Shown in pieces: positions 23,647 to 25,244 of a stretch of DNA of 44,405 nucleotides. The notes under the pieces are model-generated. The model made no database searches, was not told where the DNA came from, and worked only from the letters and a program-made list of their open reading frames with translations. Position 1 is the stretch's first letter. Every line of letters starts with the position of its first letter. The DNA is from Escherichia phage EC3-1, in sequence record PQ571288.1. One strand, written 5' to 3'. The position numbers and the translations under genes were made by a program.

Positions 23647-24777
23647 ATGGCCCGGAAGAAAATAACCGACGAACAGTTGCAGGAAGAATTGAACGCCGGT
23701 ATGAAGAATATCGACATCGCCCGTAAATACGGCATCTCAGACCGCGTTATTCGAATCCGTAAAGCGAAGCTGGCTAAGAAAGGCGTAGGCCACGGGCGCG
23801 ACGTTAGCCACCTTGTGCCAGATGGCTACAAGATTAAAGGAACGTCGTCACTTGTGGACGAGTTCGGCAACACTAAGTTGCAATGGGTTAAGACAGATAC
23901 GGACGCCGAGCGTCAGGTCGAGTTGATGAAAGCTGTGATCGAAGGCATGAAGTCAGAGATTACACCAGTTGCGCCTGTTAAAGCGACTCGAGCCAAACGC
24001 GACGATAAACTACTCAATCTTTACACGGTATCTGATTTCCATCTCGGCATGCTGGCATGGGCCGACGAGAGCGGCGACGACTGGGATATGAAAATCGCGG
24101 AAGACCTGTTCTCTCGATGGTTTTATGCTGCGTTTCAGAAAGCACCGGATGCAGGAACAGGAGTTATTAATCTGCTGGGCGACCTTGCGCACTTCGATAG
24201 TCTGGATGCCGTTACACCGGCAAGCGGTCATATTCTTGACGCGGACACGCGCTACCAGAAACTGGTACGCTACATGATTCGTATGGTCCGCCGTGTTGTT
24301 GATATGGCCCTTGTTAAGCATAAAAATGTTCGCTTGCTTATCGTGCAAGGGAACCACGACGAGAGTGGCATGATTTGGTTGGCTGAGATGTTCAGTACGC
24401 TGTATGACAATGAGCCGCGTGTGTTCGTCGATACGTCGCCGGATGTTTACAAGATGGTGCAACACGGAAAAACGACGCTGTTCTTTACACACGGGCATAA
24501 ATGCCGGTTTGAGGTGGTCGAGCCCATTATGATAGCTAAGTTCAGAAAAGCATTTGGCGAAAGCGAGTACAGTTATGCACATGTTGGGCATCTCCACCAC
24601 CAAAAGATCGTAGAAAGCAGGAATATGGTAGTGGAGCAGCATCGCACTCTCGCGGCGAAAGATGCATATGCTTCCCGCGGTGGGTGGATGTCTAAGAGGT
24701 CCGCTAATGTCATAACCTATAGTTCAGAGTTCGGGGAAGTAGGTAGGCTTTCAATCTCACCGGAGATGCTAAGATGA
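23647..24777 (+). CDS. HTH domain fused to calcineurin-like metallophosphoesterase
   Basis: Phosphoesterase motifs in order: DFHLG, GDLAHFD, GNHDE, THGH, GHLHH; N-terminal HTH-like segment NIDIARKYGISDRVIRIRKAKL. Confidence 0.7.
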   Translation: MARKKITDEQLQEELNAGMKNIDIARKYGISDRVIRIRKAKLAKKGVGHGRDVSHLVPDGYKIKGTSSLVDEFGNTKLQWVKTDTDAERQVELMKAVIEGMKSEITPVAPVKATRAKRDDKLLNLYTVSDFHLGMLAWADESGDDWDMKIAEDLFSRWFYAAFQKAPDAGTGVINLLGDLAHFDSLDAVTPASGHILDADTRYQKLVRYMIRMVRRVVDMALVKHKNVRLLIVQGNHDESGMIWLAEMFSTLYDNEPRVFVDTSPDVYKMVQHGKTTLFFTHGHKCRFEVVEPIMIAKFRKAFGESEYSYAHVGHLHHQKIVESRNMVVEQHRTLAAKDAYASRGGWMSKRSANVITYSSEFGEVGRLSISPEMLR

Positions 24778-25244
24778 AGTACCTTGATGTTTCAAAACAA
24801 TTTAAATACTGCCCTGATACTGGGCAGGTTACCAGGATATCTACTGGTGCTGAGGTTGGTACGGTTGGTGTAAGAGGCTATCTGTGCTGCGGTATGGGTG
24901 GCAAAACAGTGTATGTCCACCGCATAGCATGGTGCCTTTATAATAAATGTGACTTAGACAGGAAAACTCAAATAGACCACATAAACCATAACAGGCTAGA
25001 CAATAGAATAGAAAATCTACGCGCCACCGACAATACAGGGAACAGTAAAAATAAAACTATGAGAAAGATAAACAAATCCGGGGCTACAGGTGTAAGTTTC
25101 CACAAAGCCGCGGGTAAGTGGCGCGCGTTTATAAAAGTTAACTACAAACAAGTGCATTTAGGGCTTTACGACGATTTTGATGTAGCGGTTGCCGCGCGTA
25201 AAGCCGCCGAGAGCAAATACGGTTTCCATGAAAACCATGAGTAG
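24774..25244 (+). CDS. HNH homing endonuclease with C-terminal AP2 DNA-binding domain
   Basis: HRIAW...IDHINHNRLDNRIENLR HNH motif; ATGVSFHKAAGKWRAFIKVNYKQVHLGLYDDFDVAVAARKAAESKYG AP2-like domain. Confidence 0.8.
   Translation: MKYLDVSKQFKYCPDTGQVTRISTGAEVGTVGVRGYLCCGMGGKTVYVHRIAWCLYNKCDLDRKTQIDHINHNRLDNRIENLRATDNTGNSKNKTMRKINKSGATGVSFHKAAGKWRAFIKVNYKQVHLGLYDDFDVAVAARKAAESKYGFHENHE

Follow-up and report, generated by a model that had tools for sequence, protein, structure and literature searches.

An HNH-AP2 gene and its linked phosphoesterase tract in a Kagunavirus-like siphophage: a probable free-standing homing endonuclease

The locus and its junctions

The window analysed here, i.e. the whole stretch of 44,405 nucleotides from Escherichia phage EC3-1 (PQ571288.1), represents a Kagunavirus-like siphophage, and the open reading frame of interest occupies exactly positions 24774-25244 of its plus strand, running from an ATG start to a TAG stop and encoding a protein of 156 residues. 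The G+C content of this ORF is 43.3% versus 50.3% for the window. No paralogue of the gene was found inside the window, and when ten further mid-sized ORFs were compared with PHROG, none proved to be another endonuclease gene. The features of the locus are as follows:

23647..24777, plus strand: gene for a calcineurin-like, Mre11/SbcD-like phosphoesterase ('DNA repair exonuclease', PHROG 704), host gene of the tract considered below
24762..24777, plus strand: docking junction with GGAG at 24762-24765 and the ATGA stop/start overlap at 24774-24777 (alignment, annotated starts)
24774..25244, plus strand: HNH-AP2 endonuclease ORF, 156 aa, a probable free-standing homing endonuclease gene (Pfam HNH_3, PHROG 99)
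25245..25261, plus strand: right end of the 485-bp cassette, GGGAGATTGATTT (alignment of occupied versus empty alleles)
25258..25488, plus strand: orf76, a conserved small gene (76 aa, PHROG 2452) of the backbone, outside the mobile patch
25493..25512, no strand assigned: G+C-rich hairpin AAGGCCCCTTTCGGGGCCTT where the convergent orf76 and tail-tube genes meet

The HNH cassette measures 485 bp and sits exactly on the ATGA overlap between the phosphoesterase gene and orf76. The GGAG motif, embedded in the last phosphoesterase codons, is invariant (alignment columns 58-71 and 74-78 showing no variation), and all the alternative cargo genes found in this slot begin at the same ATGA. At the right end of the cassette, GGGAGATTGATTT brings a new Shine-Dalgarno sequence and a spacer, the ATGA of orf76 is recreated and backbone-type sequence returns within 3 nt. 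It should be pointed out that the ATGA does not represent a 4-bp target-site duplication left by transposition, a possibility rejected because the tetranucleotide is the stop/start overlap of every alternative cargo. In a differently organised phage contig, a 73%-identical homologue likewise shares an ATGA with the stop of a phosphoesterase gene, which supports a long-term fidelity to the site.

Concerning expression, translation of the HNH gene is coupled to that of the phosphoesterase gene through the ATGA overlap and the embedded GGAG. The promoter scan yielded no convincing plus-strand promoter of the gene's own, and since promoter-like sites were present only at shuffle expectation, such a promoter is not claimed. 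The hairpin at 25493..25512 is likely to be the terminator of an operon comprising the imm, phosphoesterase, HNH and orf76 genes; in relatives, a terminator has been annotated at the equivalent site.

The HNH and AP2 halves of the protein

The sequence-only reading had recognized an HNH motif followed by a C-terminal AP2 domain and, in this combination, the architecture of a free-standing phage homing endonuclease. Both domains were recovered by profile and fold matches that exceed chance by far, and the proposed architecture—an HNH_3 nuclease half joined to an AP2 half—is borne out by family-level profiles and by the structural model. The two domains are positioned as follows:

24909..25043, plus strand: HNH catalytic domain (His-Me finger, I-HmuI type), aa 46-90 (Pfam HNH_3, match to 1u3e)
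25086..25220, plus strand: AP2-type DNA-binding domain, aa 105-149 (family profile, model, Foldseek)

The catalytic half is matched by Pfam HNH_3 (PF13392) over aa 46-90 with E=4.7e-10 and 39.4 bits, the gathering score being 24.8 bits, and the same profile matches all 67 aligned full-length homologues; PHROG 99 ('HNH endonuclease') is matched with E=1e-55. The family profile finds I-HmuI (1u3e, E=2.3e-7) among the solved structures and aligns D68, H69, N77, N81 and N90 with D74, H75, N83, N87 and N96 of that enzyme, the roles of metal ligand and general base falling by this alignment to D68 and H69, respectively. Residues D68, H69, N81, R83, N90 and N93 are invariant across the 67 homologues. 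The AlphaFold2 model of the whole protein (pLDDT 93.4) exhibits the beta-beta-alpha-metal fold—strands 66-69 and 82-85 and helix 87-91, with pLDDT >90—and its best Foldseek match is 1u3e_M (E=3.6e-5). The protein may be regarded as a putative endonuclease that has kept its catalytic residues, its activity being predicted from sequence.

As far as the AP2 half is concerned, the single sequence stays below the Pfam gathering score (aa 105-149, E=9.7e-4, 19.8 vs 33.3 bits), whereas 26 of the 67 aligned full-length homologues match Pfam AP2 at E<=1e-3, the best with 1.5e-8. The family profile also matches the DNA-bound AP2 domains of WRI1 (7wq5, E=1.4e-7) and TEM1 (7et4, E=1.1e-3), and it was needed to reach both the I-HmuI and the AP2 matches among solved structures; the single-sequence search of these structures gave nothing significant, the best match being an AP2 domain with E=0.53. 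In the AlphaFold2 model, strands 107-110, 115-122 and 125-132 are followed by helix 135-149, which corresponds to the AP2 fold, i.e. a three-stranded antiparallel sheet against one helix (aa 107-149). The AP2 domains rank in Foldseek directly behind I-HmuI, with a probability of 0.99-1.00 for 7wq5, 7et4/7et5 and 1gcc, the last one superimposing with an rmsd of 1.5 Å over 50 columns (TM 0.65 normalised to target). As a prediction from profiles and the model, the AP2 assignment holds at the family and structure level, and the domain is presumed to be the targeting module of the nuclease.

Relatives of the protein were retrieved by tblastn in 3103 phage records. The gene is of a known and well-understood selfish kind and offers in itself little new biology, an identical 156-residue protein from Salmonella phage S101 having already been deposited as 'homing endonuclease'. 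The ORF is intact in 7/7 copies, in which 45 synonymous and 14 nonsynonymous codon changes were counted, and it is under purifying selection. No biochemical or genetic test of the protein or of a close relative was found in the literature.

The variable slot and the HNH-linked tract

The HNH gene is present, always at the same junction, in 38 phage records that are not independent of each other, since the 27 from Salmonella phages are almost the same in sequence, possibly reflecting one transfer, and the Kagunavirus records represent perhaps 2-6 events. It is missing in about 90% of the relatives sharing the locus (38 of 370-480 neighbourhood records carry it) and is therefore dispensable. The empty allele, ...GAGATGCTKGG-ATGA-CT..., in which one shared ATGA serves as both the phosphoesterase stop and the orf76 start, was seen in Escherichia phage 26 and in two Salmonella phages, TS3 and PVP-SE2; the occupied one has the form ...ATGA-[HNH]-TAG-GGGAGATTGATTT-ATGA-CT.... 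Two checks proposed by the sequence-only reading—a search for relatives without the gene at an intact site and for homologues at other positions—thus both gave a positive answer, the former in TS3, PVP-SE2 and phage 26, the latter in paralogues carried elsewhere by related phages, such as that 3' of the exonuclease gene in SHAK7693. The recombination hotspot suspected there agrees with the at least six alternative contents of the slot among relatives, which include the unrelated cargo genes orf66, orf77 and polynucleotide kinase together with dNMP kinase. In Ent3, the same slot is occupied by a second HNH-AP2 gene of an unrelated lineage, accompanied by its own divergent phosphoesterase allele.

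The distribution bears on two readings of the gene's function. A packaging-associated HNH protein of the HK97 gp74 kind, which assists the terminase at cos, is encoded by many siphophages (PMC3592412, PMC10448857), but this function is ruled out here by position—the gene has tail genes on either side and the terminase genes (35899-37730) are about 12 kb away—and by the presence/absence polymorphism, since most close relatives do without the gene and are viable phages; the protein is, moreover, of the I-HmuI/HNH_3 type with AP2, not of the zinc-ribbon type, and the probability left for this function is negligible. The gene might, on the other hand, encode a domesticated nuclease kept by selection for a benefit to the phage, be it interference or marker exclusion, partnership with the Mre11-like protein in recombination, or AP2-type regulation. 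Purifying selection on an ORF intact in all copies, the translational coupling to a DNA-repair nuclease gene and the competitive benefit that homing endonuclease genes can confer, exemplified by the intron endonuclease of PhiPA3 (PMC11620839) and by marker exclusion in T4 (PMC2988022), would fit such a role, whereas the dispensability seen in about 90% of the locus-sharing relatives would not. Domestication is considered rather unlikely, although it is compatible with homing, marker exclusion being, from the viewpoint of the phage, one and the same mechanism.

The sequence adjacent to the HNH gene has a history of its own:

24487..24777, plus strand: HNH-linked foreign 3' end of the phosphoesterase gene, codons 281-376 and stop (read as a co-conversion tract)

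Across the 38 records from Kagunavirus and Jerseyvirus, the HNH gene is 96.6-99.4% identical at the DNA level, while the flanks of the patch are only about 74-83% identical between the two genera. The contrast is well seen in S138, which, when compared with six Kagunavirus HNH+ genomes, is 74-77% identical in the 5' part of the phosphoesterase gene and 80-83% in orf76, but 95-99% in the tract and 96-99% in the HNH gene; compared with its HNH-less sibling TS3, it is 97-100% identical up to phosphoesterase column 800 and 100% in orf76, but 73-79% in the tract. In general, the 291-bp tract (24487-24777) is about 70% identical to the HNH-less alleles and 95-99% identical among the HNH+ genomes; at >=95% identity the full tract occurs in exactly the 38 HNH+ records, the next best reaching <=86.7%. 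In these natural genomes, as distinct from crosses, the tract is wholly linked to the HNH gene, as would be expected of co-conversion.

The patch being 95-99% identical across genera with flanks of 74-83%, the spread of that segment specifically must have been very recent, and the comparison supports a recent movement between E. coli and Salmonella phages of the HNH gene together with the 3'-terminal 291 bp of the phosphoesterase gene. With its roughly 775 bp (24487-25257), the mobile unit extends beyond the ORF. The gene had previously been supposed to have arrived by homing or recombination, which accords with its near-identity across genera despite diverged flanks; the supposition that the whole plus-strand island might be mobile was, by contrast, rejected, and mobility was retained for the gene within its patch. 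The island, made up of the superinfection-immunity gene, the phosphoesterase gene and orf76, belongs to the conserved backbone of the two genera rather than being a recent arrival, and outside the patch (immunity gene, 5' part of the phosphoesterase gene, orf76) each sequence goes with the backbone of its own genus.

Concerning the left boundary, the parent switch in S138 lies between 24480 and 24487, and the HNH-less and HNH+ alleles all diverge from 24486-24489 onwards; in Kagunavirus backgrounds the breakpoint can be placed only between about 24405 and 24486. This boundary is sharper than predicted by classic double-strand-break gap repair. The left 86 bp of the tract are present at >=90% identity in 51 records, i.e. 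the 38 HNH+ ones plus 13 HNH-less ones, whereas the junction-proximal 105 bp occur at >=95% only in the 38 HNH+ records, the next best reaching <=74.5%. The 13 HNH-less records have the left part of the tract only and the reverse arrangement is absent, although, the independent events being few, this polarity argument of '13 versus 0' has a narrow basis. At 60 diagnostic sites, GZMU_E2010 and phi135 were found to be donor-type at 24487-24642 and phage 26 from 24487 to about 24555, so that these nested partial tracts have one common left end, although in phi135 it may be displaced to the left by 30-40 bp relative to S138. The crossovers coincide with strongly conserved blocks (24400-24486, 24643-24668 and the ATGA junction), points that homology-driven recombination alone would also favour.

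The last observation, together with the unrelated cargo of the slot (orf66, orf77, polynucleotide kinase plus dNMP kinase), is what would be expected if the HNH gene were a passenger of ordinary modular recombination in a cargo hotspot, its enzyme being inactive or otherwise used. Random crossing-over does not, however, predict the complete linkage of gene and tract or the one-sided mosaics; nor do the 95-99% identity of the patch across genera against 74-83% in the flanks, the invariant catalytic residues of an ORF under purifying selection and the independent HNH-AP2 gene of Ent3 with its own divergent phosphoesterase allele suit a mere passenger, which we hold to be improbable.

A second possibility accepts a homing gene but places the cut at or near its own insertion point, the ATGA of the empty allele (24774-24777), in the manner of intron-encoded enzymes, and sees the tract as co-conversion proceeding leftwards up to the point where homology suffices for strand invasion. 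I-HmuI itself cleaves close to its intron insertion site, as is well established. The insertion would split the empty-site sequence and confer immunity automatically, crossovers inside a tract about 70% identical to the recipients would be disfavoured, and the first long conserved block met leftwards ends at 24486. Conversion should, however, become less frequent with distance from the break, and HNH+ genomes with short left tracts would therefore be expected, of which there are 0/38, even though the conserved block at 24643-24668 was usable for crossover and evidently used by GZMU_E2010 and phi135. A break at the junction would likewise hardly give rise to the 13 HNH-less records, in which the tract is represented by its break-distal part only, and free-standing phage homing endonucleases characteristically cut at a distance (PMC2988022). 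A cut at the junction is thus judged unlikely, albeit less so than a mere passenger.

Proposed homing and known systems

Based on the above comparisons, the ORF is most probably a free-standing HNH-AP2 homing endonuclease gene that homes by targeting the HNH-less phosphoesterase allele near codon 281, with the following candidate region:

24487..24555, plus strand: inferred target and immunity region (shortest donor-type segment that all HNH+ genomes and all partial mosaics have in common, as seen in phage 26)

In this region the putatively resistant allele of the phage studied here reads ACA CAC GGG CAT AAA TGC CGG TTT GAG GTG GTC... (T-HGHK-C-RF-EVV), and the putatively sensitive allele of the HNH-less phages reads CAC CAC GGG CAT AAG GCA CGA TTC GAC GCT ATC... 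(H-HGHK-A-RF-DAI). In a mixed infection with an HNH-less relative, the enzyme would recognise the phosphoesterase allele around codon 281, where the gene encodes the conserved metallophosphoesterase motif LFF-H-HGHK, some 220-290 bp upstream of where the cassette is inserted, and would cut the HNH-less DNA there or else nick it, as I-HmuI and T4 MobE do. Repair copying the HNH+ genome would then convert the recipient's phosphoesterase gene, at its 3' end, into the resistant allele (T281, C286, EVV and others), and a tract running beyond the ATGA junction would bring in the 485-bp HNH cassette, too. We infer that homing, rather than ordinary recombination with selection, drove the spread; the lesion postulated at the target, if any, may be a nick or a double-strand cut. 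A more specific version, in which the enzyme nicks, rather than cuts, the catalytic-His codons of the Mre11/SbcD-like gene and produces one-directional tracts with fixed left and variable right ends, crossing genera and leaving behind immune, 'vaccinated' HNH-less alleles, is conceivable but doubtful.

The HNH patch accounts for local mosaicism in the genomes of Kagunavirus and Jerseyvirus, and, the final 291 bp of the phosphoesterase gene having a history of their own, gene trees based on that gene would be misled. A concrete target is predicted for an uncharacterised HNH-AP2 enzyme, possibly a new sequence-specific nickase or cutter, and recent DNA exchange is documented between phages of E. 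coli and Salmonella, which are therapeutic and biocontrol candidates.

The combination of HNH and AP2 defines a recognised family of homing endonuclease genes known from cyanobacteria, ciliates and phages (cited in PMC10448857). The present gene shares with it the N-terminal HNH and C-terminal AP2 domains and is likewise phage-borne, free-standing and located by a conserved gene at an exchange boundary; its HNH_3 domain is detectable by Pfam, whereas the 'IPA-HNH' genes of ICP1, a divergent subgroup (PMC10448857), require profile-profile methods. With respect to the AP2 half, the plant and apicomplexan AP2/ERF domains (AtERF1 1GCC, WRI1 7WQ5, TEM1 7ET4) have the same fold as aa 105-149 and the signature residues GV..., KW.A.I, LG.F/Y and A..A...A in common with it; those of AtERF1, WRI1 and TEM1 belong to transcription factors, while here the domain presumably targets a nuclease.

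Among the solved structures, I-HmuI of the Bacillus phage SPO1 (PDB 1U3E), a known nicking endonuclease, is the best match in both structure and sequence (aa ~25-100), sharing the N-terminal beta-sheet region, the beta-beta-alpha-metal motif and the D-H...N...N residues. It differs in being intron-encoded and in having a helical (helix-turn-helix) instead of an AP2 DNA-binding part at the C-terminus, the identity being only ~25%.

As for the mode of life, the closest parallels are offered by MobE and SegG of T4, which, like the HNH-AP2 gene, are free-standing, lie between genes and practise 'intronless homing', although the C-terminal domain of MobE is different and SegG is a GIY-YIG enzyme; their homing was demonstrated by crosses and break mapping, whereas the target proposed here is deduced from natural recombinants. 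The cleavage sites of free-standing phage homing endonucleases lie hundreds of bp away from the point of insertion (PMC2988022), and MobE, a promoterless HNH enzyme whose gene relies on transcription from upstream, places its nick in the adjacent gene, beside codons that specify critical residues, with polymorphisms of mobE+ phages being protective (PMC2790892). In both T4 systems, a neighbouring conserved gene is targeted at a distance, the carriers are protected by polymorphism and flanking markers are co-converted (PMC2790892, PMC2988022), a pattern to which the HNH-AP2 gene with its 291-bp phosphoesterase tract would correspond.

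Operon setting and domain architecture of the HNH gene

The window covers all or nearly all of the genome of a Kagunavirus-like siphophage of the subfamily Guernseyvirinae. The 6 kb surrounding the HNH gene share 87-91% identity with many Kagunavirus phages of Escherichia; with Salmonella Jerseyvirus phages the figure is about 80%. The gene (43.3% GC versus 50.3% for the window) is located within a small plus-strand operon with minus-strand tail genes on either side:

Members of the operon
23418-23609, plus strand: superinfection-immunity gene
23647-24777, plus strand: phosphoesterase gene, calcineurin/Mre11-like, annotated 'DNA repair exonuclease'
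24774-25244, plus strand: HNH ORF, 156 aa
25258-25488, plus strand: orf76, conserved 76-aa ORF
after orf76: G+C-rich hairpin common to the operon and the convergent tail-tube gene

It should be noted that the phosphoesterase gene of Escherichia phage 590B (sequence L012, 1874-3004) is intact with a single terminal stop, yet unannotated in its GenBank record.

The HNH ORF was found at exactly the coordinates and on the strand proposed by the sequence-only reading, and the HNH plus C-terminal AP2 architecture claimed there is real, as follows from profile, alignment, model and Foldseek matches. The Pfam HNH_3 match (aa 46-90, E=4.7e-10) exceeds the curated cutoff and PHROG 99 'HNH endonuclease' is also matched (1e-55), the Pfam AP2 match (aa 105-149) being sub-threshold for this sequence alone (19.8 bits vs a cutoff of 33.3). 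In an alignment of 67 full-length homologs, all match HNH_3 and 26 match AP2, residues D68, H69, N81, R83, N90 and N93 being invariant. Searched against solved structures, the profile of this alignment retrieved I-HmuI (1U3E, E=2.3e-7)—with D68/H69/N77/N81/N90 lining up with I-HmuI D74/H75/N83/N87/N96—as well as WRI1 (E=1.4e-7) and TEM1, each through its DNA-bound AP2 domain. In the confident AlphaFold2 model (pLDDT 93.4), a nuclease core of beta-beta-alpha type is followed by a three-stranded sheet and a helix at the C-terminus; the model's top Foldseek match in the PDB is I-HmuI (E=3.6e-5), followed by AP2 domains, with AtERF1 superposing on the AP2 part at an rmsd of 1.5 Å over 50 columns.

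Judged from sequence, the ORF belongs to a known class, the free-standing homing endonuclease genes of HNH-AP2 type found in phages, with predicted nuclease activity. HNH plus AP2 is a recognised architecture of homing endonuclease genes (HEGs; PMC10448857); the 100%-identical protein of Salmonella phage S101 has been deposited as 'homing endonuclease', and the 99.4%-identical gene of phage NTEC3 is annotated 'HNH homing endonuclease'. The ORF is intact in all seven copies examined and codon differences are mostly synonymous (45 synonymous versus 14), which indicates a protein under purifying selection, not a decaying element.

Horizontal spread and extent of the mobile patch

Across the phage collection, 38 records from both Kagunavirus and Jerseyvirus carry the gene at 96.6-99.4% DNA identity, although not as 38 independent events, the 27 Salmonella-phage records being almost identical; it always occupies the same junction, the ATGA stop/start overlap at 24774-24777. 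Within this collection, the next-closest homologs share less than 60% protein identity. Concerning the neighbouring segments, Salmonella phage S138 was compared with the six Kagunavirus carriers:

Identity of S138 to six Kagunavirus carriers
phosphoesterase gene, 5' part (840 bp): 74-77%
phosphoesterase gene, last 291 bp: 95-99%
HNH gene: 96-99%
orf76: 80-83%

Against its HNH-less sibling TS3, S138 has 97-100% identity up to phosphoesterase column 800 and 100% across orf76, with only 73-79% over the last ~330 phosphoesterase columns. S138 is thus TS3-like except for a patch of ~775 bp (window-equivalent 24487-25257), and the window compared with HNH-less Kagunaviruses gives the mirror image. 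The original observation is confirmed and its interpretation supported with two corrections: of the suggested mobility of 'the island, or at least this gene', the part on the gene stands, the island as a whole being backbone, and the mobile unit is larger than the HNH ORF, including 291 bp of the upstream phosphoesterase gene. The finding is correct but ordinary and already known.

The cargo slot after the phosphoesterase gene

Relatives with an empty, intact site do exist: in TS3 and PVP-SE2 (Salmonella) and phage 26 (Escherichia), a single ATGA both ends the phosphoesterase gene and starts orf76. In the window and all other carriers, a 485-bp cassette is placed exactly at this ATGA. There the overlap passes to the HNH gene, which uses the invariant GGAG (24762-24765) within the final phosphoesterase codons, while the 3' end of the cassette, TAG-GGGAGATTGATTT-ATGA, supplies a new Shine-Dalgarno for orf76 and recreates its start; to the right, backbone-type sequence is back within 3 nt.

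The proposed recombination hotspot is borne out, the slot being a general cargo site with contents varying among relatives: none, a 66-aa ORF, a 77-aa ORF, polynucleotide kinase plus dNMP kinase, or, in Ent3, a second HNH-AP2 gene only 33% identical. At this junction (window 24762-24777 and its equivalents in relatives L003-L009, L017 and L019), all alternative cargo begins at the same ATGA, and orf66, orf77, polynucleotide kinase, HNH and orf76 itself each use the invariant GGAG, which makes the junction a shared translational-coupling 'docking' site. A metagenomic phage contig of different gene order has a 73%-identical homolog, again fused through ATGA to a phosphoesterase gene at the latter's end; that phosphoesterase shows 85.5% aa identity and shares LFFTHGHK. 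The HNH-AP2 lineage is evidently a long-standing resident of the end of this gene.

Salmonella phage SETP3 (L011, 2656-2724) keeps the first 30 nt and last 15 nt of the Ent3 HNH-AP2 gene (L010, 2671-3171) with ~446 bp deleted between them, a remnant of endonuclease-gene loss in the same slot. The phosphoesterase genes of both phages (1501-2655) are 93-100% identical to S138/TS3 over the first ~300 bp and only 45-55% from there to the end. The second HNH-AP2 gene is thus linked to a divergent tract of its own, a far longer one. Two more, different HNH endonuclease genes occur in the same island downstream of the orf76 homolog, in KMB36 (L006, 3184-3723) and ORH_001 (L007, 3226-3858), one of them on the opposite strand.

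Homologs at other positions were also found, e.g. the 47%-identical HNH-AP2 paralog of SHAK7693 (L020, 2186-2677), with a 4-bp overlap with the exonuclease gene stop. At the equivalent position of the window, a small hydrophobic ORF (6517-6750) likewise starts at an ATGA that it shares with the exonuclease gene (5255-6520), whose end is a second nuclease-gene-end cargo slot, in the window without an HNH gene. The GenBank taxonomy of SHAK7693 (OR594180.1, named 'vB_EcoM'), Autographiviridae/Kayfunavirus, is probably wrong, since its DNA is 85-93% identical to the window over several kb. Another mobile element, an intein-splicing domain, is present in the MuF-like head morphogenesis gene of a related phage contig, Logan SRR5343975_795 (L016, 1468-3327).

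Nested tracts and the homing reading

The parent switch in S138 lies between 24480 and 24487, and all HNH-less alleles of both genera diverge from all HNH+ alleles starting at 24486-24489, i.e. at phosphoesterase codon 281—Thr in carriers, His in non-carriers—within the conserved metallophosphoesterase His motif LFF-[T/H]-HGHK. In the phage collection, the 287-bp whole tract is present at ≥95% identity in exactly the 38 carriers (next best ≤86.7%), as is its junction-proximal 105 bp (next best ≤74.5%), the left 86 bp being found at ≥90% in 51 records, the 38 carriers and 13 HNH-less ones. Typing at 60 diagnostic sites showed the E. coli phage GZMU_E2010 and the Salmonella phage phi135 to be donor-type over 24487-24642 and then recipient-type, the donor-type sequence of phage 26 stopping at about 24555. 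Partial and full tracts are thus nested: they share their left end and differ in how far they reach to the right. The HNH gene is present only where a tract extends across the junction; the reciprocal class (left recipient-type, right donor-type, HNH present) was not found across the phage collection.

This pattern is as expected if the predicted endonuclease acts by intronless homing. Conversion would begin in an HNH-less genome at one fixed point near 24487-24555 and proceed rightwards by copying from an HNH+ genome. The pattern would also be expected if the HNH gene is unable to coexist in cis with a sensitive version of that site; speculatively, nick-initiated, one-sided repair could account for the sharp left edge. 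A break at the junction itself with conversion running leftwards is possible but less likely, given that a short left tract is seen in none of the carriers. The crossover points coincide with conserved blocks (24400-24486, 24643-24668 and the junction), at which homology-driven recombination would be favoured as well.

In papers on these phages, homing endonucleases figure as accessory genes only (PMC8425127). Neither a target nor the linked phosphoesterase tract was found described in that literature, to which the mapping of the mobile patch (~775 bp) and a target prediction open to testing are a modest addition. Nuclease genes are known to lie at the borders of segments that phages exchange (PMC10448857). 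Free-standing phage endonucleases perform 'intronless homing', cutting hundreds of bp away from their own gene (PMC2988022), and the putative cut site of the HNH-AP2 protein would be likewise distant. I-HmuI-type enzymes are nickases (PMC2790892). The likeness is especially to T4 MobE, an HNH enzyme whose gene is promoterless and which nicks the adjoining nrdB beside critical-residue codons, its carrier genome having protective polymorphisms (PMC2790892): here, too, the inferred target would lie in the neighbouring gene, and the carrier allele differs within a conserved His motif.
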